A stretch of DNA of 64,000 nucleotides from Amphiscolops sp. MND2022 (taxonomy: Eukaryota): positions 51,710,001 through 51,774,000 of the forward strand of contig OZ076409.1 in assembly GCA_964187785.1 (NCBI GenBank). Reading direction: 5' to 3'. Position 1 is the stretch's first letter; each line of letters opens with the position of its first letter. A program made the translations under genes and the position numbers. This document shows positions 10,068 through 36,075 of the stretch, one piece after another. A model generated the notes under the pieces. The model saw only the letters and a list, made by a program, of their open reading frames with translations, ran no database searches and had not been told where the DNA came from.

Positions 10068-10476
10068 GATACTAGTATCCAAATTCTGGCCCCCATTCCT
10101 GGCTGCCAATGATATTCATAAAACTCTGACAAAGACACCCTTCCTATTCGGCGTCTCATGTCGCCGAATATTCCACATTGATGGTATTAACACCGCCGAA
10201 ATATCCTTTTTGATGAGAGGAACTTTGATGGTGAATTCCCAAATAACATAAGAGCAAATAACATAAAAACGAAATTAGTTTCAGATAACATAAAAATGAA
10301 ATGAGTTTGACTAAACATAAAAATAAAATTGTTTACGAGAAGGTTTTAGCTGTCAAAAGCATTCACAATTCAAAAGATTCACTCAAAAAAGTATGAAAAT
10401 TACAAATAAACTTTCGTGAGTTCGATTACTTAACCGGGTATTCGGTTTTATTTTTATGTTATTTGAACCTAATTTT

Positions 10477-10767
<291 letters not shown>

Positions 10768-12949
10768 TGTAGTAGAAAATCCCACATTGAAGGTATCAAC
10801 ACCGCTGTAACATCCTTGTAGTAGTAGTAGTAGCCTACTCAGTAGGCTACCTTCTGAGAAAATCCCACATTGAAGGAATCAACACCGCTGTAACATCCTT
10901 GTTGATGAGAGGAACTCTTGAATGTAAACTTCCTTAAAAAGTTTAGACTGGTCCGATTAACTGTTTAAACTGATTGATTACGCAAAAATAGTGTGAAGAA
11001 TTGAGATTCTAAATTCCAAACTCTCAATTTGAAAAAAATTAAATTGATGGTTTCTAGTTTGTATTCAACTTGAATACAAACTAGAAACCATCAATTTAAT
11101 TTTTTTCAAAGTGAGAGTTTGGAATTGAGATACAAACATTCTTTTTTTGAAATCTTCTGATCTTTTTTTGATACCTGTCGTGAGCTTCAGCAAAAACTGT
11201 TCCGAAAAATTGTTTTTTCGATTAACTGTACTCTTTTGTACGAAAGAAAGGAAAGTAAAGACAAGATTAAAAAGCCATTAGTTTAAAAGTAACCCGCTTT
11301 TGAGATTTGTAAACGAACGATTTTCATAAATCAGGGAAGTTTACAAAAGTGTAGTTCCAAACTGAACGAACTGTTTCATTCTTTTGTTTACCATTCATCA
11401 ATCAAATTTTAAGTTGTTACAGCAACTCATGGTTTTCTTTAAGGATGCGAATAAGTCCTACCTTATAAGGTAACGAAAGTTTCACTCATCATGAGTGATG
11501 ATCAGCTCTCATTTCCTTATAAGGTACGCGCTGTCCCATTTCTATGAAAAAGCTACCTTATTACCTTATTTGGTCAATACGGTGATTCATCGTTGACGAA
11601 CAAGCGTGCGCGTATTACCTTATTTGGTCAGTAAGCGCCTGCTTTAAAGTATTTCAAGTTTGATCGCGGTAAAATTCCAATTAAATTGGCGGTTATCAGA
11701 TCTTCTCGAAGAGACCAATTTCCCTTATGAGTAGGCATTGGATTTATTTGGAAATTACAGTAGTAGCAGAAGCATACAATAAAATATGGATACCATTTGG
11801 TTGATGGCTAGACAATACGGAAAAAAATACGGAAGAAGCGTTGAATATGTGAAAGTAAAAACAGTCTTTACTTCTGAGTCAGAAATAAATACTGTTTTTA
11901 TTTTCACATATTCAACGCTTCTTCCGTATTCTGAGAAGTACTGAGATTAGTGATTGTTAATCGTGTCGCTTCTCAGAAACGTCAATTTAGCTAAGTATTG
12001 AATAATTTCTATCAAAATAGATATAAACTTATGTAAGGCGAAATATGGAGAAACATGACATTTGGATACAAATAAATCCTAAGCCTACTCATGATTGTTC
12101 GCTATGGATGAATCAAATGAAGATGTTTGGAATTTGGCAGTCAGAATTTGTAACAGACAGCAATATCATTGTTTTGTTGGTAAATATGAACGCCAATGCG
12201 AATTCTAAAATTGATGATTGACACTTCAATAGTGATTCTTTCTCACCACTGTTACAATACGCTTCTGACAGCAGAAAGTGGTTCGCAATACTAGCCCCGA
12301 GAAGAAAAGTTTAGCTCCGAAATTTATCATTACTAGAAAAGCAAAACGGTTGACCGTTGAATCCTCTCCCTTTACAGAAGTTTCAACAGTGTTAGTAGGT
12401 AAGATATTGATAGTTTTGTTTCCTTTCCGTAGTATTCAGCTATCTAAAAATTTATTCTCTTCACTAAAAGCTTTAAATATAGTATATCTTCAAACAAACT
12501 CCTGTTTCACCTCCTTTGGAAAAACGAATAATTCTTCTATATTGAATCTGAATCAGTTACTAAGGAACTGGATATAAGTTGAGTCGGACACTTTTCAATG
12601 TCCCTCATATTATCGTCACGGCTGTGATTACGCTCACGGCAGGGACCAAAGTTCAGAAATTTGATTGAGAGTAAAAACATTTATGGTAAACAAGGTAACT
12701 CAGTAAACAAACAAAATCCTGAAATTTGGTCCCTGTCGTGAGCGCAATGTTAATAAACAATTCATTAACTTGTCAGCATAACAACAAACACTGTCTGCCA
12801 GGCAACAGTGGCCGACAATAATTGATAAATTGTTTAATGCGTAAATTTAAATGATTAAATTTACGCATTAAACAATTTATCAATTATTGTCGGCCAGACC
12901 GTGATGATGAATTGTTTATTGATAAATTGTTTAAACTGAGTTGCAGCTA

Positions 12950-13312
12950 CTAGGTGAACCAAAAAAAAACGGAACGTACAAAAAATTCTTGAGCTCTCAA
13001 AGATCCAAATATTTGACAACTGAAGTTTCAAAGCAACGTTCAACGCTCCTGTCAATCATTCAAATTTGGTATATTTCTTAGAAGCGAAAATGCTTTCGCA
13101 CATTGAAAGTAAGAACGAAATGACTGGTATAGACGTCTAGACTATTTTTGATGGTTCAAACCATCATTCGTTGGAGATGTGATTACGTAATATGAGCTTC
13201 AATCAAAATATTTGATAGATAAAATTGAAAGATTCTCAGTGCCTTGTTTACAAACAATACGATTTTGAAGACACAAAAATTTGCACGTTCCGTTTTTTTT
13301 TGGTTCACCTAG
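12950..13312. mobile_element. TA-flanked MITE (Tc1/mariner-type); internally deleted second copy at ~23725-23925
   Basis: TIR CTAGGTGAACC(A)nCGGAACGT / ACGTTCCG(T)nGGTTCACCTAG, TA on both sides. Confidence 0.8.
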
Positions 13313-13538
13313 TAATTTTGGTCCCTGGTGTAAGCGCCTGATGTAATAAAACGTTCCTATGACTAAAATGACTCCGATGACTTCTGATCAAGGAAAACGC
13401 TAATTTGAAAATTCCATTTTGTAATTTTTGTATTTATGATACTTTTATTTAAAAAATGCAATAATCATGATCGTAATCATTTGAGGATCACACCATTTGA
13501 ATATCATATGAAAAGTTACATGACAAATGAAGTTGAAA

Positions 13539-15548
13539 TTAGGAGCAATGTTCCTTTACGTGCATCCTATAATTTTCCATTGTCTTGAAATTAACATTGG
13601 ATACGAGTGTCGCGTGAACATTAATGTTGCTGTTGAAGTTTAGAGTTGATGTTTTGTCAACTTTGAATTTCAGGGACGTAATGACAGCTGTTCCATCCGC
13701 AACTTTGTCCCATTCGTTGCCCAATATGTGGTCCCATGCTGATGTTGAAAAAGGGCCGTCGTCTTCTTTGATGGAGAATGTCACTGGGCCATTTGTGACA
13801 CCGAACGCGTGAATCGTCGCATCAGTGCAAGGGGCAAAATCTTGCTTGATGTCTTTGACTCTGCTGCGTCCACTGAGGGAATTCATCAACAAGTTTTCAG
13901 GTTAGAATATGCCCAATACACTAACGCATGGTCGTCGTATAACGGCGCGCCAGGTGCGTTTTCAACTGCTCCCAGTCTTTTTTTCCGGAGATAACTTACA
14001 GGGACTGTTGCGTTGAAGGAAGGATCGTCCTGTTTTTCGACTTCTACGAGAAGTTTCGTCTTTAAATAGTAAATAGAATTAATCTTCCAATCGCAGCCCA
14101 AAATTTCAACAATGTCTCCCTTGATGACGACTCCGGTGCTGATGGGGACACAAACTAGTTCTTTTCGTTCAAGTGGGGTACTTTTGAAACTCTGGGAAGG
14201 TCCACCAATTATGGCCTGGTATTGCATCAGGATTACCCGGGCCGAATAATTTATCGTAGTCACTATTCCAAAGTTTAAAAAATATTAGAAAAATGTTTGA
14301 AAAGTACTACAACTAACCCATTGAACCTATTTTGGTTGGTGATATGCAAATGATAATAGGTATTTTTGCCAAAATTGAGAACTCAATTCGCTTCGGAAAA
14401 ACTGAGGATAAAGCACTTCGGAAACTTTTCCTAGTAGTATTGTCAAAAAGATTAATGTATTCTACAAAAAAAAATTAAATCAACTGTACGTGCTTTTTCT
14501 CGGGAGGCTGCCAACAACTTGCAACGTTAAACTTGCAATCATTCAACCCTCATAGTCTAGCTAAAAAATAGTTGTACCTCTGTTAAAAAAATATTGAAGT
14601 AGTATTTTCGGTAAGCCTGCTTTACATCAATTTTAGTCTTCTTTTTAGGCATCTTGGCGGGGATCGTGGCCTCTATTCCGCGGGTCACCAACACCGTGAC
14701 TTTTTTGTCAAACACCGTCTTTTTGTCGCATCTTGAAGTAACGTGTTCTTCGTCAGATTCATCCGAGGACTCGGAGTCCTCGGGTTCTTCGAATTTCACT
14801 TTTTTGAAAACGGATGCTGCTTTTGTGACGATTCGCATCGAAGCTGGTAGTATTTGATGGGGACCAAATTCACATTTTCTAGCTGTTCTTCGAAAAAAAC
14901 GTTTTCCTCTATTGGTATCACAACTGGCGATATCAACATTTCTTTACGGAAGGGATCGTTTTTCATTACGAAACCTTCTTCGATGTCCCCTATGTGTCGT
15001 ACGCCGTCTTTAGCATGGGCCAGTGTGTAATGAACTTTATCGATTCTAACACGTTTTTCTTTCATGTAGCCCAGAACATCAAGGCTCAGTGTCAGTTCAA
15101 CGCTACGGCTGTAGCTTGGAATTGGCGTTTCGTTCTTTCGGATGGGCCATTTCTCTGGAAAGTCGTGGAATTTTGGGGGTGTTCTAACAACTCCTGCTGC
15201 ATGTTTTGAGTTGTAATCTAACCATTTGACTTTCGCCTGGAAACAAAAACGTTTTAAAATGTAACTCATTGAACAAAATTCATTAGCAGTAGTGATATTT
15301 CTGAAAGCAACAAATGGCAAGACTGAAAATCGAATATCTCTAAAACAACAGCGATTTCTGAAAAAAATTATGAGGATGAAAGTTTCTTAGATTTTCATGT
15401 ATGTTTATTTGAAGAATATAGGATGAAAATTTAATACCTCATGAGTTCGGTGAAATTCGGTGACGTAGGCTGATCGCCAAAGTCCACATTCTTCCTCGAA
15501 ACATTGCAGGAGTTCTCCGACTTTGAAATTTTTCGAGAATGTCTGCAT
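13539..15548 (-). pseudogene. Spliced gene with N-terminal Tudor/chromo-barrel (Royal family)-like domain and acidic stretch; frameshifted downstream
   Basis: Exon 15548-15438 (MQTFSKNFKVGELLQCFEEECGLWRSAYVTEFHRTHE) splices in phase 0 to 15236 (AKVKWLDYNSKH); frame changes near 14840 and 13890; linkage of the 13539-14263 ORFs is uncertain. Confidence 0.55.
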
Positions 15549-16371
15549 TGTCTGTTGTTTCGCACTCGGTTCAAGACTCGGTACTAGTAGTGGGTTTAAG
15601 AGAACTAAATTCAGTGTCTTTGTAGTGAAATGAGACTAATATTATGTTGCTCTAAGCAAGCTAAGTTAGCAAAAAGACTTCAACTTGAACTGACTTCAAC
15701 AAAAATTAGAATAACTTCAACTTAAACTTGTCACAGCCGCAAAACCAAATTGGGTTAAATTGGTCCAGAATGATATACCGGCCCGCGGGCGTTAATTTGA
15801 ACCAATATGGTCAAAACTTAGATTTTCGGATAATCAGTTGAATTGCACAATGGAAAAATTAGTCTATTTAATGATGCTATTCATTACTATCCAATTTATA
15901 GTAATGAACGATGCCTCCTATGATGGGGATGACCATCATTACAAGGCCCACTTCATCCAATATTCAATCTTGGTTGAAACCTAAACCACAAAACCAAATT
16001 GGGTTAAATTGTTCCAGAGTATTTTGCCGGCCCGGGGGCGTTAATTTGAACTTGATTTTCGAATAATGATAATTATGAAGTGATTAGATAATGATGCCCC
16101 GTCCTGGCTGACTTCAAGTCACGCTGATAAGTCACGCTTTAAGTTACGCTGATTGACCATCTTACGCTGCATGACTGAAATCCATTCTACCGGGAAGTGT
16201 CTCGTTATTACATCGTAAAATCGAAAAGGGAATAAGTTTTTGAATTCATCATTTGAAATCAATTCCTCGTCAAGTTCAGACCTCAATTTTATTCAAACTT
16301 CTCAACTATATTGTTGCAACAACCAGTTTACTAATCTCTTGAATTCGAGAATCAAACTGAAATTTTCCAAA

Positions 16372-19300
16372 ATGCTCGATGCTTCTTTTTCTCAAACAAC
16401 ATCTTCCCAAACTTCGGTCAACATTGCTATCGAGCAAATTATTGCCCGTCATTTGAATGATGATGGAATTGTACAAGAAGTTATCCATGAACTCGCGCCT
16501 CCTCCTGTTCTGACAAGTCAGATATCTCATCCTCACGCTCAGGCTGATATATATGACTTCGTTCCATCGAACTCATCAATGCCAGCAGTAATCGCCGAAA
16601 ATCATACAGGTTCAACATTTTTTGGTACTTTAAAACGTTTATTGGGCGCATTATACTTTTTCCCTCGGCTATGTGTCGTCTGTTGATAGTTCCAGTTACG
16701 TAGTTACACTCAGTGTCAGTAATTTGCATAATTCTAAATAAATGTCGCACTATGTCAGATAAATTTTACGGAACAAAGTGCTCTACATAACTGGGTAGCG
16801 TTCTAAAGTATTGCAAATCCATAATAATACTTGACTATATACCACAATAATAAGTTGAATAATATCCATAATAAGTTGAATAATACTTTCTGAACAAGTT
16901 TTGGTCAAACATTTGCCGTCGAGAATGATCCTGCCGAATTAGTAATTAGTAAACTACAAAATAAACATGATTTCAGTTCAATTCGCAGTGTGTATATAAC
17001 TGAAATCCTGAGTGATTTCACTGGAATAATTTTATGCCTTGTAATGGAGCTCACACCAGGGACCAAAATTTTGAAATCAATCGTAGAACATCGAAATTGT
17101 TTTTGTGAAAAACGGATGTTTCCAACTGAGTAAATTATTGAGCTAAACAATCAGTGTAGGATAAAAATAGTTTTTTTTAGATAACTGAATGCAATCAATT
17201 TTTTCTGAATTTCCTTGGATTTATATGCTTTCTCTTATTTAAAAAAAAAACAGATTGATTTCAAAAATCAATTAGGTTTCGGTAATCAAATGTTTCTTGA
17301 TTGGCAGAAAATGGCATGTTTATTGTATTTAAGGTTATCAAACTCCATCATGGAAACCCCCAGGCCCCAAAGAGCAGCTTGAAAATTCTAGTGTCCCGCT
17401 TCAAACACGCCCAGAGGGATTGAATAACCCCCATTCAACACCACATCCGAACCATGCGTCATCAACGAACTTCGCCGCTCCATTGAGCCCGATCGACGCG
17501 GTCAATTCCAACGGGAGCAACTATGATTCTCCCCTCGAACTTCAGCCAGCGGCCCAGGATGCAAATGGTCGTGGTGAACTGTTGAGCGTCATGTCAAAAT
17601 GGGCAGAAGGACGCTCTCATGTCGAACATCTAGTGGAAACTAACCGTGTTCCTCAAAAAGAAGGAGCCATGCTTGTGTTCCAGTCGCTCGTGATCATCTG
17701 GTGTGTCATCAACAACTACCCTGCCCGACTTCTCAAGAAGTTCACTGTGTATGACTTTGTGAACTTCGTCAAGAAAGGAAATGGTCAATATGTTTGTGCT
17801 GTGACTGATGGAAACAAGTACAAATTTAGGAGGGCTTTAAAGTTCAACGAGTTCGAGCAAAAAGTGATGACTTTCTATTTCAAACGTGTTCGCCCATTTT
17901 GGATAAATGCATTCGATGTTCTGAAAGACAGTTTTCTCACAGAACCCTTAGATTTGACTCTGCAAGAAGTAACACAGTCATTTTTTTATAATTCACTAGG
18001 GAAAAAGCAATTGAATGTTACCAGAGTTTGTGAGAACTTTCAAAACAAAATGAATGCAACCCACAGGAAGCCGAAAAGAAGACTCATCTACGAGCCAACT
18101 ACAACAATTCTCGAAAATGATGGAACTGTTAGTTCAACAGTGGAAATGATATCGCAGGCAACCAAAACGCCACCAAACAACACCCCCGATTCTGATTCAG
18201 CAGCTCAAAGACAGTTGAAGCCAGTGGAGATGACTACGATGTCCCCGACTTCAAAAAAACAACTGTTCTACTCTAGTGATAGCTTTACCAGTCTCAATTC
18301 AGTAAGTTAAATCTTTTAGTATCCATCATTACGATACTCGTACCGGTATGCTGCTGTCAGTCAAGCAGCGCAATCTGAGTAAAATGGTAAAATGGTCATT
18401 CAGCGTAAGTTAGTCAAGTATGGAGTAGAACAGATGATCGTGCGCACTGAAAAGTTATTGGATTGAATTTGGTCCCTGCCATGAGCACAGCTGAAAATTT
18501 TTATTCAATAAAAATTTTTTCAGCTGTTCTCATGGGAGGGACCAAATTCAACCCAATCAAGTTGATCCTCAGGAGTTGAACTTGATTGGGTTGAATTTGG
18601 TCCCTGCGATGAGCACAGCTGAAAATTTTGGACTGAATTTTTTGGACTGAAAAAGTCCACATTGCTCGAGGTGAACAAAACTCCTACAAAACTCTACTAA
18701 AGTAGTTAGTTTATGAAATTTTTCAGGTGAAAAAATTTTTCATTCTTCCGAATAATCCCGAGGACACTATTCCGACGCCGGCCGAATGCAGGGAAGAAAT
18801 CATGAGAAGAGTTTGCATTGATGCGGCAGCAGCAAAAAACCTCGGAGGACGTGTGAATGACCACTTGCGCTACAAACTCGTGAATTTGCGTGTCCAAAAA
18901 ACCATTAACTTCTTCCATGGACCGACTCAACCGTCCCGAGATTGCGTAGCAAAATTCGTCCGCAATCGTGGTTGGTCGGATCACGCAAGAATTGTCGACC
19001 AAGCGATGATAGCGTGGAAGCCTGCAAATAGTGATGTTAGACGAATCACTAGACGTACAGTACCTGAAGTAATTCAGACGGATCTCGGAAGAGGCGTGTG
19101 TATGTTTTTTTGCAAGCTGACATCAACTTTTGTGAACACCTCAAAAATACAAGAGTACATCTGTAACCAAGAGTGGCCCTTCCTCCAAGTTCGTGAAAAA
19201 ATATTGTTCGCGAATGGTTCTGTCGGCCGCGGAGTGGTCACAACTGCCTCAATCAAAGAATCGGAAATAGTTTGTGACTACCACACAGACCTTGTCATAG

Positions 19301-19734
19301 ACCAGGCACTATTACGAGAACGTTCAAACACGCAGTATGTTCTTGACTGTGGTGATTTTGTGCTCGATGCTACTGCCGAAACGTGCAAATGTCACCCTGG
19401 TAGAAGATCGTTTGGACGTCTCCTCAACTACAGACCGAGCAACAACCAAGAATGTAATGTGAGAATGAAGCGGGCAAATATCGGTGGCCAAGATGTAGTT
19501 CTGTTCGTTGCGAAGAGATCCATCGATGTCTTGGAGGAACTCTGCTTCGATTACAATGATGCAGTTTGCAGGGCAGAGTTTTGCCAGCAACTTTCCAATT
19601 CCTCGGGTGCCTCATGGTCCACACAGACCCAAGGAACATCTACCACTGGCAGTGAATCTGAGCGAGAGACCTCTACTACTACTACTAGTAACTCTCAAGT
19701 GACCGAGACGCCTGGAAGTCCTACCCTCTTTTGA
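16372..19734 (+). CDS. ~737-aa protein: tyrosine-recombinase-like region + C-terminal SET domain (SETD8/PR-Set7-like)
   Basis: Exons 16372-16609, 17334-18301 and 18727-19734 join in frame; SET motifs GRGVVTT, DY, LDAT, FGRLLNY, EELCFDY; YR-like VCAVTDGNKYK...YFKRVRP...FFYNSLGK. Confidence 0.8.
18327..18418 (+). repeat. Internal 92-bp copy of the transposon left end (TIR + subterminal repeat), in an intron
   Basis: 85/92 identical to 8236-8327. Confidence 0.9.
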
Positions 19735-20347
19735 AACTTGAAGTGTAATCATTAGTGAAGATGATCTTAGTACAGTAGCGTGATTTTAAAAAAAATGCCC
19801 GGCCTGCCTCTACACTAAGCGTTATCATAAATGATCGATTGCATATTTGCTCAATTTCAACTGATTATATATTTTCAACACTTTCAACTGATATCATATT
19901 TCAACATATTTTCAACTAATAACTCATTTTCAAATAGTTTTTTTTACCGAAGACAGTATTTTTCTTCCTTACATGACGATGATACGTATGATACTAGTGG
20001 AGTCTCTCATAAATTAAAAAAATGTTTTCAGGACATCCAAAGGAGTTTTTTTTGAATTTTTGAATTACGTTTCGAGTTACTTGGTTTTTTTTCTCTGAGG
20101 TTAACGCTTTATCGCATAACGAGACAACCCGGTAAAATAGGTTTCAGGCACGCAGCTGTATGATCTCGGACATTTCAAAAAGTCTGTCGGAAGTTTGCAA
20201 TTTGTTTTTTCTTCTTCTACCGTGACGGTCACTTCTGGTGGCAATCATAACTTTTGAAATTGTTTTCATAATCATTAAGCCAGTATCATCGTTTTTGTGA
20301 TTTGTTGCTGGTTTCTTGCTTAAACAGGTTTTGTATTTCAGATCGAA

Positions 20348-23300
20348 ATGATACAAAAACCAATCATCACTTATGCTGGCATCAATTACGTGAAACTCAC
20401 ATTCCTGAACGTCTTGTTCCCGAATGTGTTCCTGCTGGAAAGCAATGACTGCCTTCTTCCCAATGATCGCAGAAAGGCTACAGATTTCCTCAAGAAGCAT
20501 TTAAAAGGTTTACTTTCTTTCCTTTTTTAATCAAAAACATAACTAGATATCGTAAACGTAATCGTACAAAACGTGGTTGTGAGATGTAAGGAATGCACTT
20601 GAGCATAGCATTGTAGTTGATCGTTCGTGGCACGTTTTGATTCATGATTGTTGCAGGACTGAACGTAAACTTCTCTGATGTATACAAGCCCCATGGGATC
20701 AAAGAAAGATGTCCTTTGTTGCGCGAAGACGTATTCGATTTATTGATAATATCTGCACCTCCATCATTGATTCCCTGGACGACTGAAAGAGTTGGCTATA
20801 TACGACAATTTTTCCCTTCGTTGCCCATTCCAGACTCAACCTCTTTTTTAACAATTCAAGTTGACGCTATTTTTTCACAACAGTCATTGGAAACAGGCGT
20901 TTCGCTGCAGAATTTTTGGAGCTCTTCTTTGAAGACTATATCAGAATCAGAAATTGCATTGGGTCAATTTATTGAAACTCTCAAGCAGTTTTTCACAAGT
21001 CAAACTTTGAAAATCAAGAAAAAAAACACCTTAGTTCATAAACTTCTTCATCTATTTCTGCCAAACTTGTTTTGCCTTGAAAGGGAAGACATTCAAATGG
21101 AGATTCAATGCCTACTTACTCTCAGTAATCCTCAGGATCTTTTAGTCAAAATACGTCGACTTATACAATGCCCTTTCATCAAATCCACCATTCTCCCTTC
21201 AAGACGTGAACTTCAAGCAATCACAAATAAATTGAACGAAGATTTCAGATTAATACTTACTCCCAGAAGAACCCCCACTGGGTTCCGTGTTAATCTTGTT
21301 TCATTTGTCAGATTCGTTGCCTGCAATTTGTATAACAAGACCAGCTTAGTCGGCTTGAGAGTCGACATTTATGGTGATGCAATGTCTCGGGGGAAAAAAG
21401 ACGTCGTACGAATGGCCTTCCGAATTTTGCAAAGCGGCATCGAAACTGAGCAATCCTCAACCCATGTCTTCACGTTTGCTGTGTTTGAGGTGAGTCGTTC
21501 AAGTTTTAATCTAATTTTAACTTTATTAACTTGATTTTAACTTCATTCTAACTTGATTTCTATTGTGAGCTACATCAAAATGTTTATTGAGAACCTAATT
21601 TTGGTCCCTGTTGTGAGCTACACTTAATAGTTTAGTGGTAACGCGAATCTAAATTTGGTCCCTGTCGTGAGTTACACTTAAATGATTACTTAGTAGTTGG
21701 AAAACCAATTTGGTCTGTCTTGAGCAGCACTCAATTGTTTTGTTGATATAACTCTAAATTTTTCCCTGTTGTGAGAAACTGGAAGTTGAAATATGAATTT
21801 TTGGAATGTTTCCCAGGGTAAAGATGTGCGAATCAACCTGGAATACAATCTCGCCATGTCAGAAGTGCTTGGACGCCCTGGATGGCTATACAACGAAACA
21901 AAGGCCTTGCATGATGAAAGTGCTATACTGAGTTGCTCGGGTGATTCACCATTCCAACTGCGTCTTTTAAAAGGTGTTAGCAGTGATGTCTCTTGTCTGT
22001 CAAAGATGTGTCTTTATGTCAGTGATCCTGCAGATATTTCGAATCCACCAGTGAAACAGACAAAAAAAGACACCGCTGAATATAAGAAAGAAATGGAAGG
22101 AAGGGGGGTGATTCTTCCGTCAACTGTCGATTATGCTACTGGCCGAAGAACAGAACTGATCATTGACATCAACGAATGCATCCCAAAAGACTCTCTCATT
22201 TTTCTCAAATCCACTTTCAATACATGCCCTGATTTGCTGCATATGGTTGTCCGTTCAGTCGAAAGTGACTTGAAGTTGCATGTGGACTCGATGTTGCTGT
22301 TGAAAGACCATGCAGCAATATGTAGACTCGAATGTAACATAACGGAACGAAATGTGAAACCGCCGAGATTCAAGTTTGAGATCGCTGAAAAACTCTGCAA
22401 GGCTGTATCTCTCAGTTTCAGAGACGCCGAAGTCATAATATCCGACTGCAACAGAATCAGCGACTATGGCCGATCAGACTGCCCAATTTTTGAAGGTGTG
22501 TATTCATTCGAAACACCTCATGTCTACAAAGCTGACCAAACAACCTCTACAACGTCTTATAACGTGTTGATATCATTGGTTGATGGGTTGGAGACATCTT
22601 TCACAAAAGGAGTGGGTATTTCTGTTCGGAAACTGGCTGACCTCCAATTCCAATCTCTTTACCAGTTACTTGATTTGCTTCGACAGAGAGAATTCAAAGA
22701 CATTCAAAAGTGTAAAGATCTCTATGAGATTTATTACCAGTCAACTTTATGTCTTTTCGGTGATCGTGCGTTGACGCCATACAAATTGAAACTGGATATT
22801 TTACTCAGACTTTTTGAGAAGGGTGAGCTTCTGTCTCCATTTTATTACATGACAGAAGGAACTGAAAAAAGCCACCACACGGCAGCCAAAGACTACAATA
22901 CGAAGACAATGCGTGATGGTGACAATGATGCTTGGAACATGTCATCCTGTTATCTCGATATTCAGTTTTCCTTCTACCGTGCAATTGATTTATGTTCTTC
23001 AAAGTCTTCGACACTTGAATCTTACCGGAAGTTGTATGGAAAAACCGACGTGACAAAGACGTATCTTGAAATTTGCTGTGAACCCATTCCAGAACCTGAA
23101 CTTGACTATCTTAGAACTGAAGACATGTTTAGAGGTATGCACTTTGTCATTCTTGGAACATATGGTCACCTGAAAGAAACTCAAGCGAGTCTTGAGAAGA
23201 AGATCACTGAAAATGGAGGAAATGTTGTTTCCAATGTAGACATCATCAACAGAAGCAAGCTGAATTTTTTGAGCCATCACTATTGCATTTTACCAAATCG

Positions 23301-23643
23301 AAATTGTATCGACGCATTCATTAAAGGTCAACAAGGTAAAGAAAAAGCTGCAACGAAGGCGCTTTCCAATACGATACTCGGTAACTGGATTTACTTGAAC
23401 GCTGAATTTGTAATCGCCTGTGTACAGAAGAAGTCTTTGATTGATCCCAAAGGCTATGTTTTTGAAGTAGATGAGTCTGCGAGAGCCAAATTCAAAACGA
23501 TGAAGTACATATCTATGGCCCCACAATTACAACGTCAATCAAACCCCCTACGACATGGTTCATTAACTTACCACACAGCAATGCGGAAGTACAAGAACGC
23601 ACTAAAAAAGGCCACATTGAAGAGAAAACTAGACGACGTTTAA
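20348..23643 (+). CDS. ~939-aa RAG1/Transib/CMC-like DDE transposase with C-terminal BRCT domain
   Basis: Exons 20348-20507, 20657-21489 and 21817-23643 in frame; candidate D (YGDAM), D (VSSDVS), CPDLLH, TPYK and E (TEGTEKSH); BRCT pattern FRGMHFVILG...IT-NGG-VV...FVIACVQKKSLIDPKGY. Confidence 0.75.
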
Positions 23644-24304
23644 TACCTAAAAACTTACTTATTTTATTACTAATTCAGTAGACAAGGTCCATTTGACCGC
23701 TTCATTGTCAATTCAGTGCTATCTACTAGGTGATTCAAATTTGGTACATTTCTTAGAAGCGAAAATGCTTTCACACATTAAAAGTGAGAACGAAATGACT
23801 GGTATAGACGTATATTTTTGATGGTTCAAACCATCTTTGGTTGAAAATGTGATTACGTAATTTGATCTTAAATCTAAATGAATGACAGAAAAAATTGAAC
23901 GATTATCAGTGCCTTGCTTACAAATATTTTATGTTATAATTTAAACTTATGATAGATCTATGATGATAGATTGAACCAAATATTCGCAATTCAACTTATA
24001 CTTCCATGGTATATCTTTTCGCCGTGACGTTTTCTCTGAAAAGTTCATCAGTCGAAATTTTGATCCCCGTCGTGAGCGCAATATTTAACTGCATCGAGTT
24101 TACATTCCCTCTGTTACCTTATTTACTATTGAATGATCTATGACAGTTGTCTCAGGAATGATCTATGAGGACGTGTGACTTCCTGGAATAGTGTGACTTG
24201 TTGTGAGTTGTTGGATGTATATATTTGACAATCATTTTATAGTTAATTTCATACAATATTGATTGGTGTATAACTTATGAGCGAATTTTTTCAGTTGATA
24301 TCAA

Positions 24305-27300
24305 ATGGCAACACTGCCGACCACGCCATCAACGTCTCGTCGAACGACACCAGCGAAAGTCCCATGCGGCCAAGGTTCGATAACAATTTTTTTGTGATCA
24401 AGCTGTAACGTAATCAAGCTGTAACTTTTTTTCACGGAAAAGTTTAATCTGACATATGGCATTCCTTTTAGGCACTTGTGACGTTGTGGACAAGCTGTCC
24501 AACATCCTACGCCACCGCAAAGTCTGTCCCCGAATGCCACGAGAGCAGTTCAAGCTCATGGAGAGAACGTGCCAGCTCTGCGGCCAGATCATTTCCGCCA
24601 AAAAACTGCTGAAGAAGCACTACAATACAAAGTATTGTAAGGAGCAGCAAAAGCGGAAAGCAGAAGGCCTGCCTACCCGAATGTACCAGTACGGTTAGTC
24701 ATTACAATGTATGTTAAAAATTGATCGACTTGTAACATTTTAAACTCAATGATTTTGAAAAAAAGTCTAGGTCTCAAACAAAAAGTGTGTTTTTATTCAT
24801 GTAACTTCTATGTTACAGCAGCTGCAAAAGGCTTGACGCGGAGGCCTAACTTATGCTACGGCAGAGGTTGTGGCAAGTCATATGTTTACCCTTATGACTT
24901 GCGCGTGCACCTTTTGAAGAATCCTCAATGCCAGGAAGGAGCGAATGTGAGTGCCTGTCCTATTTTTTTCTCTTTAAGAACACATGTTGAATGATTTGAT
25001 TGACCATTTGACTCTCGAAACGCCGTGTTTTAAACGGTGACAATGTGACTGGAACTCCGAATGAGTCATTTTATCGTGGCAACTGTTTAGGCTGCAGTAT
25101 CTTTGGGCTCCGATTCGTCTACTAGTAGCAACACTGACGAGCGATTCAGGCCAGAAGATTTCAACCACATTCCTTCTGATGTGTTTGGGTCTGATGGATT
25201 TTTCAAGTTCGCGATGGAAGTGCCCCTCGACTACAAGTTTCCTGTAGCTCAATGGGAAGGCAACGTTGACGACCATGTCGTCAAATTCAATTCCCTGATG
25301 AGACACAGTGTGCCTCTGTTGTGGCGTGGAGGTGTCAACCATTGCCATGGTTTGAAGCTGCCTCAAGTGGAAGAACTCGCTTTCACTCAAGTTGTCCAAC
25401 AGCTTCTAGTCCCCCAGAAGCTACAAGCAAGTGCAGCAACCATCAATGTCAAGTCGGCAAAACTTGGAGAAGTAAGTCTTTGGTAGAATTACTTTCAATT
25501 TGAAGCTTGTTTTTTTCGTAAAATATCTGGAACAACTGCAATTTGATCCCTGTCGTGAGCTCATTTTCCAACTTGGACAAGTCTTTGGTAGAATTACTTT
25601 CAATTTCAAATTTTCAAGTAATGCTTCAAGTTGAAGCTTGTATTTTTCGTAAATATCGAACAACTGCAATTTGATCCCTGTCGTGAGCTCATTCTCCAAC
25701 TTGGGCAAGTTGAATTTGTCGAACAACTGCATTTGAACTATTCTAACAATGAGAAAGTTGTCCGTCTTATTCCCGTCTTAGTCACTTTATGATCATTTCA
25801 TTTCAGAGTCGTGACCTCAGTCTCGACGAGTTCAAGCAGGAGCTCATCAACGCCGACAGAAGCAGCGTTTACTATCCTTTAAACGCTATAGACATCGCCA
25901 TGCAGCCAAAGGTAAACAACATTGAATGAGCTCCTTTGATTTGATGGAAAACGCAAATCCAGTGAAAAACGACTTTTCTTTTATTGTTTTCCCCAACCCC
26001 CTGTTTGCTAGTAGTTGCGTACAAATTGGACTTTGAGGATTTTATTCAACATAATGCACATTGTTTTGAAACAACTTCAACTTATATTGATTTTTTTGTC
26101 TTTTCAGTCCATCTACAGCGTGCCAACGATGATAAAAAAGTCGTCAGTGAACCACCTTGTGGACGAGCTGGTCAGTAAGTCAGCAGAACCGTTCTCAGTA
26201 GCGACTTCATACTACTTGCTGATCTCCAACGATGGTTGTCAAACAACTTGGCACACGGACTTCAGTTCAACATCTGTCTTTTATACAGTCTTGACTGGGT
26301 CCAAGACCTTCTTTCTGGTTGCGTCAACTGAAAACAACATGAAGTTGTTCAATGCCTGGTCCAAACAAGAATCCGACGACATGTGAGTTGAATTTTTTCA
26401 CCAAGGAATTTCAGCTTTTGTGTTCATCTATTTTTGTATTTTTGCATCATTTTGCATCACGGGCCATCATTTCCGTACGTGTTTTCATTGTATTTGCGAA
26501 ATTTTCAACTTTCAATGCACTATATTGTTTTTGCATCGCCGAATATTTTAAGAATAGTCGCTTAGAGTTCCAACAGTTTTCGTTTTAGGCCAACATTTTT
26601 TGGATGCCACAAAAGACTGGAGGGGGGTTGCCTCAGGGTTACTCTTAATCCGGGCGACGTTTTCGCCATGCCGTCTCAGTACATCCATACAGTCCTCACA
26701 AGTGGAGACTCTGTGGCAATAGGGACGAATTTCCTTTCAGAAGGTCATTCGAACCAGTTCAAAAAGGCGATCATTGAAGAAGACTCCATCAGGGAGCATG
26801 AGAAGTTTCCGGGCATGTTGGAAATGCTAGCTACTTTGATGCTCAAAGCATCAGAGAGATGCATGATAACTCCGGACTTCCTTCGTCTTCACAGAGCCAT
26901 TGAGAATCGATATCAAGAAAGTGAAGCTGTTGCTGTGAGTTGTATTTTTTAGTTCACAATCGTTTAGAATCAAACTAAGTTATCGAATTAAGTATTTGTA
27001 TAATGAAGCAGTGTTGTGACTCACAACAGGGACCAAAACTGAAATTGGTAATCATAATGAATAATGTTGATGATGACGTTGTGGCTCACGACAGGGACCA
27101 AAATTAAAGGTGGTAATGATTACCAATTTTAATTTCGGTCCCTGTCGTGAGCCACAAGGTCATCATCAACATTATTTGTTGATGATCAACAAAGTTGATC
27201 AAATAGCTTGGTGAGTTATCACGAGTTTTGTTTCAGATTTGCCCCGAATTCAGCAAGGAGAGACTCGTTTACAATATTTGCTCGCGCAAAGACTTCGTAA

Positions 27301-27863
27301 ACGATGTTCATGTCACTGCTTTCACGGAAACGGCCTCAAAAAGGGCATATCTTCTTTGCCCCAAGCCTTGCTTCAGAAGGAGGAACTGGTTTACAAACGA
27401 GGACGGCGTGAGGGTCCCGAAGGAAGCAATTTCTGAGGAGCGCCTCACTTTCTTGTGCCGAAGACCTGATGTTGACGAGCCGAATCGTGATGTTTTGATC
27501 AGCTATGAGGAAGCCATCACGTATGTGCACCCGCGACCGTCACAAACAGTAAGAGCTTTGCACAAAATGCCGAAAAGAAAAACCCTCGTTCAAGACCGTG
27601 GTAAGTTTGCTTATTTTAGTTACATCCTGGTTGTTTCGTCTTAGTATACATAGTGGTAATGTAAGTGATGATATTCAAAACTGGTCACCTGGTTGAACAT
27701 CCGTAAGGCTTACATTTGATTTTCTTATTTCCTAAAAAGACTTCAAAATGAAATTAATGGAGTGGTAATCGAATTCAATGTTTTTGTTTCAGAATTCAGA
27801 CCATCTACTGATCGTTACGTTGCTTCGATCATGAGCCACCATGTCCCTGCATACAGCTTGTAG
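24305..27863 (+). CDS. Nine-exon gene: three C2HC-type zinc fingers + JmjC domain (KDM2/KDM7-like putative histone demethylase)
   Basis: Exons approx. 24305-24374, 24472-24693, 24819-24946, 25091-25471, 25807-25911, 26108-26382, 26589-26934, 27237-27600, 27792-27863 with GT-AG introns; TTWHTDFSSTSVFYTVLTGSKTF and MPSQYIHTVLTSGDSVAIGTNFL. Confidence 0.85.
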
Positions 27864-28031
27864 TTGCGTACAGACTGAGTTGTGCTTAAGAAGTTCTCGA
27901 TCATTGTTAACTTAACATGTTGAACTTTCTTGTCTCCGAGTTATTTGTTGTGCTCAGTAAGTTGTACACTGTGGCTCGGTATAAACTTGTAGCTTGAAAA
28001 ACTGCTCTAGATTTTTCGAATGACCGTCAAC

Positions 28032-28391
28032 CAGGGGTGTTAAATATTGCATTGCAATACTATTGCAATACTAATAAAACAATCTTTTGTTATTCTGAAT
28101 TTTGTTGAAACAATAATTGCAATTATTGTGTCTATGAAAAAGATTGTTTGAAAAACCAATCAAATCAATTTGTTGATCAAATTACCATCTGAAAATTGTT
28201 CGTTGATCATTATTAGTTTGACTGAAAAGTCCGCCAAATTGGAAGTATTTGGCACCCAACTCATGTCTCCGAATTCTTTCCTTATTGTGAAAAATCAACA
28301 ATGTATTGTATTTGATAACGTTCTGAAAATAATTATTGTATACAATTTTATTGCAATTATTGTGACCTAGAATTATTTTTTAACACCCCTG
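28032..28391. mobile_element. hAT-type MITE
   Basis: TIR CAGGGGTGTTAAA/TTTAACACCCCTG, 8-bp TSD CCGTCAAC. Confidence 0.9.
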
Positions 28392-29723
28392 CCGTCAACA
28401 ACCTGGTATTTTTTGTTCATAGCAAATTCAGCAAAACATTCAGCAAATTATTACGGCAAAGTCCAATTACCTCATAGTCTAGTTAAAATCTTTATTTTAA
28501 CTAATCATTTCACGGTAAAAAAAATTGTTGTTGACCATTATTCAATTATTAGGTTACTATTCATTCAATAAGTTAATGTGTACAATTTACCTTCGATTTA
28601 TAGTGCATTCAAAGTTTGTACAGCCTTGATCGTTTGTAAGTTTGTAATGTTCTGAATTGTATCAACTGTGTTTTGGACAATTACTGTCGGAAATGTCGAG
28701 TAGTTGTTCCCAAAAAAAGAGGGACATCTACCGTCGGAAATATCGGGTGGTTGTTTCCAAAAAAAATATCAAATACCGTCAAAATCAATCATTGATGGCC
28801 GCCGGAAGTCATCGGGTCATCGGAAGGGAGTTTCCAATTAACTTCGCCTTTGTGCTCCCTTGCATCGTATGTTTTCTCTTTCAGTACAGGCCGAGTATGA
28901 ATAATAGAAGCAAAAGCCTCTTTGTTAAGGAGAAAAACAGTGTTTAAGGTTGTTTAAGAATAGAAAAACGGTCAAACGTCCCAATTCAGATTCAGTTGTC
29001 TGTAACTTTTTCAATTTTCGTCTGAAAAATTTCAACGTTAAACTAATGTAAACTAGAAGAAAATTTAAGAATAGTTTCCTTCTGACAATTTTACAAATTT
29101 TCAATCGATTCCGAAAAAATCGAGCCTGAAAATGCTCGGGGGGTGTTTTCCTAATCACAGTACTAGAGCTCTCAACCAATGAAATGAACATGTGGGCATC
29201 AATTAGCCAATGATATCTATTCGTTCGTTCCGCCGGCGGCTGCTGTTTTTCAAAAGTTGATAAAAGTACTTCAAGTTGACTCAAGTTTGTTATGTTTGCT
29301 ATAGACCAAGACTCAAGTTATTTTAATTTTTCTTGACGCAGCTCGGAGAAGCAACATAAATACAGGTTACATTTTGATCCGTCGTGAGCAAATATAAAAC
29401 AGAGTTGCTAAACCATATTTTAAGTTAAGTACCAGCTCTGAGAAACTGTCTCTGTTTTCAACCACAGTATCCTTCTTTTCTTAGGATGTGTTTTCAGAAA
29501 GAAAACAACTTTCATTGAATATTGTATTTTGAATACAAAAATAGCACCAGTTTTATAATGGAATTTATGAACATTATAAAATCACAAAAAAATAATTGAA
29601 AATAAAAAATTTATCTCTTGTAGAGCAAATAAATAATGAGTTTTGAAACTTTAAAGTTTCAAAAATAGTGGAAAAGTCGTTGAAATCGTTTCAACAAAAC
29701 TTCGAGTCCCTCGGGTTCAGACA

Positions 29724-30107
29724 TTATTTCAGCCTGAGCAGGCATCCTTGTTTCCTGCAGAGTGGGCACTTCACCCAAAGGGCACGATCAGTGCTTTCCC
29801 TGTGAATCACAGTGATCAAAATTTTCGAACGATATCTAGAATGAGTTTGTTTTGTAACCACGTGTGTACCAAAAATTTCAGGAATACAAAAATGTAAAGG
29901 ACACGCCTCAAAAAATTGATCAGTGAAAATTATCAGAAAGGAAAAGTGAAAACAGCTTCAATAACAATTTTTCAAAGCAAAGTTCTGTGAAACTTACCTC
30001 TCAAGCACTTTGATCCAGGCTTGACGGCACTGATTGCATATCGCGTGTTTATCATGGAGAATCCAAAAACGCGAAAAGATCTTCTCTCCACAGACAGCGC
30101 AAAGCAT
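29724..30107 (-). CDS. Spliced RING-finger-like protein (not in ORF track); may extend upstream to ~30235 across a frameshift
   Basis: Exon 30107-29998 MLCAVCGEKIFSRFWILHDKHAICNQCRQAWIKVLE joins in frame (gtaagt...tctag) to 29835-29724 RYRSKILITVIHRESTDRALWVKCPLCRKQGCLLRLK*. Confidence 0.7.
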
Positions 30108-30607
30108 TTCCAGTTGGTTAATGTGTTTCAGGTGGTCAATAAGTACAATGATTTTTGAAAAGATATATCAGTCTTGTCACACGGTTGTTTGAAGATCGAA
30201 TGGCCAACAATCGGCCCGGGACATATAGAACACATCGTACGAAAGATTTGAACTTTATTTTGTCATTATCTTGTTTCTATGTACGAACAACTGGCTTTGT
30301 TTCATGACTTGACAACTTGCAAGTCCTTTTAATCCTTTCACTAAGTAACCACCTAGTTAATTTATAACCTCTGTACCTGTAACAAATAACCGTCTCCACT
30401 TATTATTTGGTTTAGTAAACCAACGCGGTACTTCGGTAGTGCCACTTTCATTCATTTCAAAATAAGATGATAGTCAAGATGATTCTTTCATTTCAGTTAT
30501 TATGTCGATATAATTGTATTTGTTTCAATGGTTTCAAAAAATGAAATAATTATTACTTTACAGAATTGAATGACGTACATATGTATGTTTACAAAGTTTA
30601 TGGAATT

Positions 30608-30803
30608 AACAAAGTTCATTCATTTATCACTACTAAAAAATTAATAACGTACATATGTGGTTTTGATCCCTGTCGTGAGCAACATCAAGTTGTAACAAAT
30701 AGTCTAACAAAGTTCATTCATTTATCACTACGAAAAAATTAATAACGTACATATGTGGTTTTGATCCTTGTCGTGAGCAACATCAAGTTGTAACAAATAG
30801 TCT
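30608..30803 (+). repeat. Two tandem ~98-bp units containing the 20-bp motif, related to the 191-bp direct repeat and to 34315-34395
   Basis: AACAAAGTTCATTCATTTATCACTAC...TTTTGATCCYTGTCGTGAGCAACATCAAGTTGTAACAAATAGTCT twice. Confidence 0.8.
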
Positions 30804-31403
30804 ATACGAATCTAAAACTCTGTTTGTGTCTAAAACTCTATCAATCTGAAATGTCTATTCCAAATCTCCAAGTACTTAAACGATTATTTAATTACCACTG
30901 CAGTAAATTTAGAATTGAGGCGTGTTGAATAAGGACAACTGCCAGTGAAGGTGCCACAGGCTGTTCAGTGAAGGTTTGTCGAAAACTGCTGAGAAGTGCT
31001 TACACCGTGTAAGCATTAATTAACACCATTAACACCGTGACGATTAAATAATTAATACTGCAGGAAAGGGTAGATTTGAGGCATTTTAATTATGACTATT
31101 CAAATTTTGTCGATAACCGCAGCAAAGTCTTTACACGATTAACTAATTACAATTACGAATTGAGGCTTTCTAATAATGATTTCTGAATTTCTGTCGAAAA
31201 CTGAAAAGTCGATTCAGTCAAACCTTTTACAACGATACTGTCAACTTGCTTTCATATCTCTCGCAATCATCAACTTCTGTTTTCATCAAATCTTAATTTC
31301 ATAATCAACTTCTGAACTTGTCAAAAACAGCAAAGTCGAATCAGTCAATTCTTTCGCATCAATATTTTCAACCTTCTTCCTCTCGCAATCATCAATATCT
31401 ATC

Positions 31404-31865
31404 ATGTTCGATCCCGCAGCAATGCCAATCAGGTCGTGTATTCGTCCAATAGATGAAATGATCTCAAACTGTGGACCACCACACAGAAAAAATGTGCGTT
31501 TTGCTGACTCAGCACCAATCTCGGTCTCAACCACCAATCAACTTGAAGCAACTCCCACATATCCGAGAGCTTGGAGAATCAAAAGAAGGGCACCCATTCC
31601 TGAAACTCCAACTCCACTGGCACCCACTCTAATGCACCCACTCCACTCCACTGGCACCCACTCCGGGAACAAAAAAGCAGTCACTACGGTAGGATCAAAA
31701 ACAGTGAGGTTCTCTTTCATAGAAAGGGCTGTATCACCGAATGGAGAAGTATCAGAGTCAGTCATTTCCTTCAATGACTCGGAAACCAATCCTTGTGACG
31801 AATACTGGAAACCTGGGGCTCTCGACGACAGGCCGTACATAATGAACTGCCGAACAACACGATAG
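31404..31865 (+). CDS. 153-aa Pro/Thr-rich ORF with two RVxF-like motifs
   Basis: ATG-initiated ORF, GC-richer than flanks; RKNVRFADS and SKTVRFSF. Confidence 0.5.
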   Translation: MFDPAAMPIRSCIRPIDEMISNCGPPHRKNVRFADSAPISVSTTNQLEATPTYPRAWRIKRRAPIPETPTPLAPTLMHPLHSTGTHSGNKKAVTTVGSKTVRFSFIERAVSPNGEVSESVISFNDSETNPCDEYWKPGALDDRPYIMNCRTTR

Positions 31866-31946
31866 AATTTAAAGTTATTATTCTGCTCTTCTAGTACAGT
31901 TGACACAACTGTACTAGAAGAGCAGAATAGTAATTTTAAATGTAAC

Positions 31947-32312
31947 CAGGGCTACCGAAAAAATAATGGATCAAACCATTATCTTTGATAAATAATTTAT
32001 TTCTAGTATATTTCCATTCAGAAAATTTATTTCTGTCATTCGAAAAATACCATAATTATTTCGGAATTTTCCATTATTTTAGAAATAAAATGATCTACAA
32101 AGCAAATAAAGGCGACGCTACCACCAAGGCAGCTTGCCGTATGTAGGCTATTGTAAATTTCTAACATATGCAAAATTATTTCATATAATTTAAAATTATG
32201 GCCATAATTTATTTATTTGAGAAAATATTGTTATTTATGGGCATTAAATCTAAAATAAATCTATAAATATAAAAATAATGAAAAAAACTAAAAGAAGTTT
32301 TCGGTAGCCCTG
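31947..32312. mobile_element. hAT-type MITE
   Basis: TIR CAGGGCTACCGAAAA/TTTTCGGTAGCCCTG, 8-bp TSD AATGTAAC. Confidence 0.9.
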
Positions 32313-32371
32313 AATGTAACATCGGTTCTAAAATCATTTCTGAATGTGGACGAAACAGTTTGGCTTCAGTA

Positions 32372-32742
32372 CAGGGGTGTTCATTATTGTATTGTAATTT
32401 AAATCTAAGCCTACGAAAATCAATAATTCAATTTTCCACAAAAATCAATAATTGAAATTATTGTGCTCAAAAACAAACTGATGAAGAAACTTAAATTGCT
32501 CTGCGAACTTTGAAAGTTTCTTTCTATAATAAGTCATCATAAATCTCGCTCGAGAGGATTTTTTTCAAGTAACCAACTTTTTCGATTTGTTAATGTTACA
32601 CTGCAATTAATAATTTCCCCCACAGGATTACGAGCAATCAATAATTGTTGGAAAACAGAGACGTAAAATCAATAATTGTAATTGTTTAACTTAAATTGAA
32701 TTGCAATAATTGTTCTTTGCAATAATTAATTGAACACCCCTG
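32372..32742. mobile_element. hAT-type MITE (same TIR family as 28032-28391)
   Basis: TIR CAGGGGTGTTCA/TGAACACCCCTG, 8-bp TSD CTTCAGTA. Confidence 0.9.
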
Positions 32743-32976
32743 CTTCAGTATCTCAGTATCGGATGCGAATTTTACCTCCGGGGTAAAATTCGCATCCGAT
32801 ACTGAGATACTGAAGCCAAAACTGTTTCGTCCAATCAGATTTTAGAACCAACCAACGAGTCGTCATCTGGAAGGACAAATTTTTCTGATGATCAACTTGC
32901 AAAGCGAACAAAAGATCGGTCGTCTCGACACGAACTTCTAGACCTATTACACAGTCTGAAATCCAACCTGTCAAAC

Positions 32977-34220
32977 TTGAAAGCGAATGGTCAATGTGTG
33001 AACAACTTCTTGACTCAAGGACGACCTTCGGTGGACGAAATTGAAGATCTTTCCTACCCACTTGAAGAATGGATGGAGGAAATTGAACCCTTGGTTTCCC
33101 ACTTCAATGCCCAAAACTTCGCAACCCTCAGTGAGGAGAATTTGAAGCAAGAACAAAACAAATGCCTGGAACTTCAAGAAGGTGTTCAAGCTCAGATAAT
33201 CTCAATTGGCAAGTTACAGAAGAATATGTTGAGGCCTTGTACAGTAGTGATATTATTAAAAGCAACAAAAGGCAAATCTCAAAACCGAATATCTCTAAAA
33301 CAGCAGCGATTTTTGAAAAATGATAAAGTGAAAGTTTCTTAGATTTTTATCTAGTTTACAAATATGTTTGTTTGAAGACTATGCGATGAAAATTGTAGAA
33401 GTTACGATAGGCCATTTTTAGCCAAATTTAGGTCAAAATTGAGGTTTTTCTCACTTTTGGGCTACTTTTCCCCAAAATTTTTGAAAAAATTTTTGTTCAA
33501 TTGACCCCCCTGATTTAACTGAAGCTCCTGATATGTTTTGATTTAGAAATCATCTTAAAATCGTAAAGAAAATGCGCTGTAAAATTGAACTTTTTCGAAA
33601 ATACATGTATTAAGATACGATTTTGAAATATAACCACTTAAAACAAGCTCGTACTAATACAATTTACAAAATTTTCGAGAAAAAATTATATTGTCAGATT
33701 CAAAATGTTTGGGAGAATTTTTCTGTTAAAATTGTTTTGAAATCAAAAAATTGTAAGTGGGTCAAAAATTCAAAAAACTAAAAAATGATGTTTTGGAAAT
33801 CGCTCTCGACCAATGAAATGAGCGCGTGAGACATTATTTAGCCAATGAGATTTGTTTATTTGCTCTCTTTCCGCGTGCTTTGTTGCTTAATAATATAGTT
33901 GTTGTAGTAATAATAATATCACTACAGTACAAAACCATTCAAAACTCACAGATTCAGAACAGCACCCAAGATAACGAATCAGTGGCTAGTTTGAGCGACC
34001 GCGTGATCGGAATCATGAACAGATACAACGCCATTTCTTCCAACGTGGAGGAAAGAGCGCAACAACTGTATTTCGACATAGAGGAGTCCTTACAGGTATT
34101 GAGATTGTGATTGTTATGTATCCGAAGAAACTGAAAGAACAGCTGAAGAATCTATCGCAAGTTAGAACAAATCTGGAGGACACCGGTGCCGAAATTGACA
34201 AGATCAAGGCCAACGCTGAG
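32977..34220 (+). pseudogene. Coiled-coil-like coding remnant disrupted by a MITE and a frameshift
   Basis: Glu/Gln/Leu-rich frames 32977-33240 and 33928-34220 on either side of the TA-flanked insertion. Confidence 0.45.
33242..33927. mobile_element. TA-flanked MITE; partial second copy at ~15287-15430 in the intron of the Tudor-like gene
   Basis: TIR CAGTAGTGATATTATTA / TAATAATATCACTACAG, TA on both sides. Confidence 0.75.
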
Positions 34221-36073: not shown

Positions 36074-36075
36074 GT

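Follow-up and report, generated by a model that had tools for sequence, protein, structure and literature searches.

We analysed a window of 64,000 nucleotides from the genome of Amphiscolops sp. MND2022 (GenBank assembly GCA_964187785.1, contig OZ076409.1, positions 51,710,001 to 51,774,000 of the forward strand; coordinates below are those of this window), in which the interval 20348 to 23643 had drawn attention as a possible RAG1/Transib-like transposase gene. The interval lies within a 27.8-kb transposable element, together with genes for JmjC and SET domain proteins, and the whole is inserted into a Gypsy-like retroelement. We think it very probable that the gene encodes a cut-and-paste transposase of the DDE (Asp-Asp-Glu) class with a RAG1-like fold, devoid of zinc ligands and ending in a BRCT domain; the JmjC and SET genes travelling with it may counter silencing.

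The borders of the element are the points at which its similarity to five further genomic copies ends, and it is bounded by terminal inverted repeats (TIRs) and by a 2-bp target site duplication (TSD). A 2-bp TSD was found for the window copy, the five aligned copies, and 17 of 20 further pairs of ends, making 23 of 23 resolved insertions (three of the 26 were unresolved); in all 17 of the pairs scored by script the longest duplication was exactly 2 bp. Thirteen different dinucleotides occur among the 23 TSDs, and the target sequence is thus variable. The host retroelement provides an empty site, as the dinucleotide GT is single in 14 of 14 uninterrupted copies. We assign the element to the cut-and-paste class, since it has the hallmarks of DDE transposons in its TIRs, 2-bp TSD, and clean empty site; it has been mobile recently, generating 2-bp duplications of any sequence. 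The host itself is a long terminal repeat retroelement on the minus strand (gag, protease, reverse transcriptase, RNase H, and integrase) occupying positions 1 to 8235 and resuming at 36074; it is split near the start of the gag open reading frame (ORF), and many of its copies in the genome are 96 to 99% identical.

The family to which this element belongs (family A) is young and abundant. Other full copies measure 27.6 to 30.0 kb, and exact genome matches to a 29-mer spanning the motif around transposase residue E681 indicate about 130 transposase copies; if most are full length, family A would occupy roughly 3 to 4 Mb. First-look candidate counts of 1069 to 1147 were rejected as copy numbers in favor of the exact patterns, by which the genome has 130 transposase motifs and, for right ends, 233. 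Mean identity among copies is 99.6%, and 18 of 30 retain an intact three-exon coding sequence. A 3.4-kb deletion derivative retains both ends and its TSD, end coordinates suggest further derivatives of ~0.4 to 1.4 kb, and two family A copies are rearranged or nested head-to-tail. The features of the window are collected in Table 1.

Table 1. Features of the family A element and its insertion site in the 64,000-nucleotide window
Feature	Position	Strand	Details and basis
Complete family A element (27,838 bp)	8236..36073	.	~99% alignment of five other copies, divergence outside
Left TSD copy (GT), 2 bp	8234..8235	+	Flank comparison; single GT in uninterrupted host copies
Right TSD copy (GT), 2 bp	36074..36075	+	Flank comparison; uninterrupted host copies
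Left TIR, 22 bp	8236..8257	+	Starts CATTAC; 2 mismatches over 22 bp, none in the first 13
Right TIR	36052..36073	-	Ends GTAATG; terminal 31-mer has 233 exact genome matches
Transposase exon 1	20348..20507	+	Start of N-terminal domain, putative start codon; in-phase GT-AG junction in 30/30 copies
Transposase exon 2	20657..21489	+	Completes the N-terminal domain; then a helical region and the first strands of the RNase H fold, with D294 (DIYGD)
Transposase exon 3	21817..23643	+	D334 (GKD), D374 (SGD), D470xxH473, zinc-less helical insertion, E681, BRCT
Single BRCT domain	~23125-23480	+	Within exon 3
19-bp motif TTTGRTCCCTGYYGTGAGC, 22 copies	8862..35700	.	<=2 mismatches; outside assigned exons, often in hairpins
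C2H2 zinc finger and JmjC gene	24453..27644	+	Multi-exon, putative exon model; weak Pfam matches
SET-domain gene, SETD8/KMT5A-like	16219..19734	+	PF00856 E 3e-10; likely exons near 16370-16640, 17333-18302, 18727-19734
Multi-exon gene, unknown family	13539..15635	-	Conserved in sister families
RING-finger exon	34635..34862	-	PF13920 E 2e-4, below cut-off
Left-terminus relic, 92% identical	18327..18418	+	Inside a SET-gene intron; repeat comparison

The transposase gene had been described as a single intact reading frame in the original prediction, which does not stand. Two long ORFs, at 20644-21534 and 21793-23643, occupy the noted interval, and the gene consists of three exons that, when spliced, encode 939 amino acids with no stop. 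Both introns have GT-AG boundaries, and none of the four splice dinucleotides is altered in any of 30 genomic copies; relatives without intron 2 continue directly across its position (FAAYRGKDSR). The spliced N-terminus (residues 36-113) aligns over the junction to relative P0049 at E 9e-8 in a set of 14 sequences, in which exon 1 alone has no match. The motifs on which the prediction was founded do occur in the order given, with DIYGDAM at nucleotide 21364, GVSSDVS at 21973, CPDLLH at 22225, TPYK at 22774, YMTEGTEKSHH at 22846, and BRCT from ~23125. The choice of GVSSDVS as the site of the second catalytic aspartate has to be revised, as its aspartate is not conserved and that of SCSGDSP (D374) is invariant in 28 of 28 relatives.

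A profile search defines a large protein family, with 413 clusters at 50% identity, and ten relatives that we looked up are unnamed or 'hypothetical' records. In a 30-row alignment (residue numbers are shifted by +49 following the addition of exon 1), the residues invariant in all relatives covering the position include D294 in 21/21, D334 in 25/25, and D470 and H473, like D374, in 28/28; E678, E681, and H685 are each invariant in 25/25. The spacings are 80 residues between the first and second aspartates (D1-D2) and 96 residues from D2 to the DxxH motif.

Comparison with RAG1 and HzTransib structures was the check proposed for the original prediction, and an RNase H-like fold is indeed predicted. 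An AlphaFold model of the full-length relative P0025 (predicted local distance difference test score, pLDDT, 83.8) matches RAG with a Z score of 17.0 (424 aligned residues, root mean square deviation 4.8), followed by BbRAGL (16.8), the P element (12.1), and HzTransib (11.6); the fold also resembles Hermes and Tn5, and in a Foldseek search the P0025 model finds RAG1 at E 4.7e-8. The proposed RAG1/Transib-type fold is thus supported by prediction. A model of exon 3 of the window copy (pLDDT 87.6) gives Z scores of 11.5 with BbRAGL and 11.0 with RAG. Searches of PDB by sequence found no transposase. Judged by the ends of the aligned range, E350 of the exon-3 model (equivalent to E681) falls on RAG1 position 962 in 4wwx, and D43 (equivalent to D374) falls on 708 in 6oem if the range is ungapped; the remaining rows deviate by one to four. 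E962 of RAG1 is named in PDB titles. The RNase H active site is predicted to consist of D294, D374, and E681, and D334 would occupy the position of RAG1 E662. The gene is almost certainly the transposase of the 27.8-kb element. Its being closest to RAG1 holds among solved structures only, and we know of no solved EnSpm transposase structure. The N-terminal domain (P0025 residues 1-110; exons 1 and 2 in the window) is confidently folded and is a candidate DNA-binding domain; a viral structure library returned no match to the model at E<=0.001, and weak rows of Bro-N, KilA-N, and antirepressor type (E 0.2-0.7) are a mere lead.

The suggested lack of zinc ligands proves to be a property of the family and not of the window copy alone. 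Among 63 aligned rows, 34 span the region from D2 to the catalytic glutamate, and neither a CxxC after D2 nor an H(3-4)H before the glutamate is present in any of them (0/34 for each). In the positive control, canonical EnSpm ORFs of this genome, CxxC was found in 8/8 and H(3-4)H in 6/8, the remaining two being truncated. A histidine six residues before E681, at the position matching RAG1 W956, is kept in 25 of 25 relatives; it is a tyrosine in the window copy, which speaks against a role in binding zinc. The insertion domain is predicted to fold without zinc. As set out in the parts of PMC12730594 used here, RAG1 and the members of the CMCT clade (EnSpm/CACTA, Mirage, Chapaev, Transib, Plavaka, ESTA, as well as Lanisha; Kojima 2025) all carry C(2)C and H(3-4)H.

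The BRCT-like tail is likewise recovered. Pfam BRCT_2 matches the window protein at E 9.9e-5, below the curated cut-off, and matches 25 of 63 aligned relatives; BRCT was the only domain among the Pfam families listed for the 63 members. Structure comparison yields BRCT domains at Z ~10 to 11, and P0025, like the window protein, has one such domain. A single BRCT would likely contact DNA ends or end-joining proteins.

The element carries, in addition to the transposase, three genes that recur in related elements. The best PDB match of the SET protein is KMT5A (E 1.3e-6), and a JmjC profile built from three families matches PHF8 (E 1e-13), KDM7A (9e-12), and KDM2A (1e-9), with C2H2 fingers preceding the JmjC domain and an intact HxD...H metal motif (TTWHTDF, YIHTVLT). 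Both the SETD8-like and the PHF8/KDM7-like proteins belong to families with activity on H4K20me1. The third gene, on the minus strand, has no Pfam match and no useful Atlas match, and its first exon appears Tudor-like by eye only. JmjC, SET, and the third gene are present in all five families that we recognize (A to E, see below), at 25 to 65% identity and in varying order. The RING-finger exon was found in family A alone, with no tblastn match in the examined stretches of families B to E (the left end of family E excluded). ORFs of 100 to 190 amino acids in the right arm (31305-31865, 32806-33342, and 33817-34307, within 28925-34307) have no Pfam support and are possibly further cargo exons. 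The left-terminus relic within the SET gene may record an earlier, shorter element. The left arm also contains an (AGT)n microsatellite of variable length (10477-10775), and several perfect or near-perfect hairpins of 35 to 61 bp lie near it and elsewhere; an Rfam scan gave no matches.

The 22 matches of the 19-bp motif in the window all fall inside the element, compared with 0.01 expected, and five elements contain 108 matches with none in 58.5 kb of flanking DNA; by inspection, the sites lie within introns and intergenic DNA of the putative gene models. It is absent from families B to E (no matches); families B and D have their own different repeated word, and family C has other, weakly repeated words. 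This pattern recalls VANDAL elements of Arabidopsis and their VANC proteins, in which, according to the sections of PMC5735166 consulted, a short family-specific motif is enriched in non-coding element DNA and differs between sister families; those elements have a MuDR transposase, and VANC binding and anti-silencing were shown experimentally, whereas here they are reasoned from the likeness. By that analogy, an element-encoded DNA-binding protein, the leading candidate being the product of the C2H2-JmjC gene, would recognize the 19-bp motif and keep the chromatin open. That the JmjC and SET genes counter host silencing is, on this analogy, a suggestion that we hold at slightly below even chances. 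Almost as plausible, if somewhat short of it, is that the cargo genes are passengers or have another role, such as choice of chromatin at the target site, and that the motif is a transposase-binding or structural sequence like the subterminal repeats of EnSpm; the altered NH motif of the family A SET domain and the frequent occurrence of the 19-bp motif within hairpins are consistent with this. Against this, all five families retain the JmjC, SET, and third genes, diverged and reordered though these are, and the metal motif of JmjC is undamaged; copies of the 19-bp motif, moreover, occur in introns over the full length of the element and not just near its ends.

A genome search with relative P0017 identified the further families, with transposases ~30% identical to that of the window. 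The termini CATTAC...GTAATG recur in family B, of 17-20 kb, in family C, of 17.8 kb, and in family D, of 47-48 kb. We fetched 14 sister copies, 10 of which have both ends resolved, and eight of these 10 have a 2-bp TSD. A quick tree of 32 rows, rooted at its midpoint, separates family A from families B to D at the deepest split; the shared ends, TSD, and cargo therefore seem to be old features of the lineage, although they could also have been exchanged within one genome. Family D contains nested Gypsy-like coding pieces, 99.5% alike in all four copies, and since they are common to all four, a retroelement seems to have been multiplied as cargo. Immediately past the right end of family E copy E1, at ~24.7-28.3 kb, lie the SET and third genes of another family, ~40% identical to those of family B, which suggests that more families are present in the genome. 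A metagenome scan with P0025 found nothing; with query A1 it found 12 contigs of 1 to 7 kb, too short to show ends, two of which have a weak match (E 5e-5) to the third cargo gene.

Where these elements belong is best judged against the transposons that they resemble. Transib, RAGL (ProtoRAG), and RAG1 have the closest solved folds (Z 16.6-17.0 for RAG and BbRAGL, 11.6 for HzTransib), an identical succession of the motifs D, D/E, D, DxxH, and ExxE, and ends starting with CA. The new families differ in their 2-bp TSD, the absence of the four zinc ligands, the BRCT tail, the low identity (10-12%), and a size of 17 to 48 kb with chromatin cargo, in which we recognized no RAG2-like gene. Because Transib and RAGL have 5-bp TSDs (in the portion of PMC10462144 used here) and these elements have 2-bp TSDs and CATTAC ends, they are not Transib or RAGL proper. 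The termini of families A to D (CATTAC..GTAATG) agree with the 5'-CA..TG-3' of the CMCT clade, as do a TSD within 2 to 5 bp and a DDE transposase with DxxH; lacking C(2)C and H(3-4)H, however, the family departs from the zinc motifs that the clade's description gives. ESTA elements in that description have a TA-specific TSD, unlike the 13 dinucleotides among 23 seen here. The element works like a CMCT-clade transposon, yet differs in two defining traits, the 5-bp TSD of Transib and RAGL and the zinc motifs.

Giant Plavaka elements of Bostrychia come closest in architecture (as far as covered in the parts of bioRxiv 10.1101/2025.02.11.637652 consulted); they measure 17 to 19 kb, have a SET protein and a 2-oxoglutarate (2OG) oxygenase among the products of three accessory genes, and contain internal repeat arrays proposed as self-binding sites. 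Those red algal elements have a Plavaka transposase, a methylase-SET protein, and a ParB-oxygenase, unlike the SETD8-like and C2H2-PHF8/KDM7-type JmjC proteins here. HarbingerS, cited in PMC12730594, is likewise a DNA transposon encoding a SET methyltransferase, and has a PIF/Harbinger transposase; JmjC and BRCT domains go unmentioned in the part of that account used here.

A less probable alternative, which we consider possible but unlikely, is that these elements are a highly diverged sub-lineage of EnSpm/CACTA or Plavaka in which the zinc ligands were lost secondarily, perhaps already in Repbase as EnSpm. CA...TG ends and a variable 2-bp TSD fit the CMCT clade, PlavakaB has CATCA..TGATG ends and TSDs of 2 to 3 bp (in the passages of PMC12730594 used here), and giant Plavaka elements bear SET and 2OG-oxygenase genes. 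The transposase spacings of 80 and 96 residues are near EnSpm's (about 83 and 92-99), and two EnSpm transposase ORFs in the same genome look SET-fused at the N-terminus by eye. Against it, the family lacks C(2)C and H(3-4)H, both defining motifs, the Pfam EnSpm, Plavaka, and RAG1 families have no match at E<=1 for the 63 members (among 25 of 33 families listed), and the A2 profile is negative on eight EnSpm ORFs, with an hhalign probability of 0.1 to 0.3% (a shallow control, with an effective number of sequences of 2.5). Similarity to PF02992 or PF18759 was found neither among the families listed for the 63 members nor by hmmsearch or hhalign to the eight EnSpm ORFs, a result that at this depth is still compatible with descent; searches with PF12940 and PF18759 gave no match anywhere, controls included, and are uninformative. 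In the literature we found no description of a BRCT-bearing, zinc-less member, with Repbase Reports and bioRxiv supplements outside that coverage and earlier curation possible. We favor the view, as the more probable, that these elements are a lineage of giant cut-and-paste transposons undescribed so far.

Transposition by the zinc-less, RAG1-like transposase would, by analogy with RAG and Transib, start with its binding to the 22-bp ends, proceed through excision by nick and hairpin (the route of RAG and Transib excision in the parts of PMC10462144 used here), and finish with insertion at a 2-nucleotide stagger. It is very improbable that the element is instead moved in a Crypton-like manner by a tyrosine-recombinase-like region of the SET gene, with the RAG-fold gene as cargo or a domesticated host gene, as ORF 17333-18310 resembles a degenerate tyrosine-recombinase domain only by eye, whereas the TIRs, 2-bp TSD, and clean empty site are DDE hallmarks and the D/D/E residues are invariant across the transposase family. 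Identification of that ORF as a tyrosine recombinase found no support in Pfam or PDB.

Several observations weigh against the interpretation of a RAG1-like, BRCT-ended transposase with anti-silencing cargo. The full-length fold derives from P0025, which is 26% identical, and not from the window's own N-terminal half; Foldseek with the exon-3 model alone finds nothing at E<=0.001, and the Atlas score for RAG1 is only 0.85. The residue preceding the BRCT glycine is not serine or threonine in the alignments, which, by the usual definition of the pocket, makes phosphopeptide binding doubtful. The SET NH motif is NHS in families B and C and NYR in 5 of 5 family A copies compared, and with NY in place of NH the family A SET may be inactive. 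The 18 intact copies differ from one another by 36 synonymous and 91 non-synonymous changes (with the window copy as reference), and purifying selection is thus not evident among them. Two of the 10 resolved sister insertions (B2 and D3) have mismatched TSDs, family E shares the right-end hexamer, only its right end being resolved, and all element-level data come from one genome, that of a eukaryote with introns, in an assembly of 1.07 Gb.

Taken at its broadest, the proposal would be of an unnamed and widespread superfamily of giant transposons, with a zinc-less RAG1 fold, recruitment of end joining through their own BRCT, and an ancient writer-eraser pair (SETD8-like and PHF8/KDM7-like) addressed in each family to its own motif for VANC-like anti-silencing; we regard this full combination as speculative and, as a whole, doubtful. 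The lineage is likely a new branch beside the transposons that gave rise to RAG1. It suggests that a zinc site thought to be universal in the clade is dispensable, which bears on the evolution of the RAG fold and of the target stagger (2 versus 5 bp). With a young family, intact copies, and 22-bp ends, the system is directly testable, and an enzyme that moves 28 to 48 kb is of interest for delivery of large cargo. The conserved demethylase and methyltransferase cargo, together with family-specific motifs, offers a testable case of transposon-encoded chromatin counter-defense outside plants.

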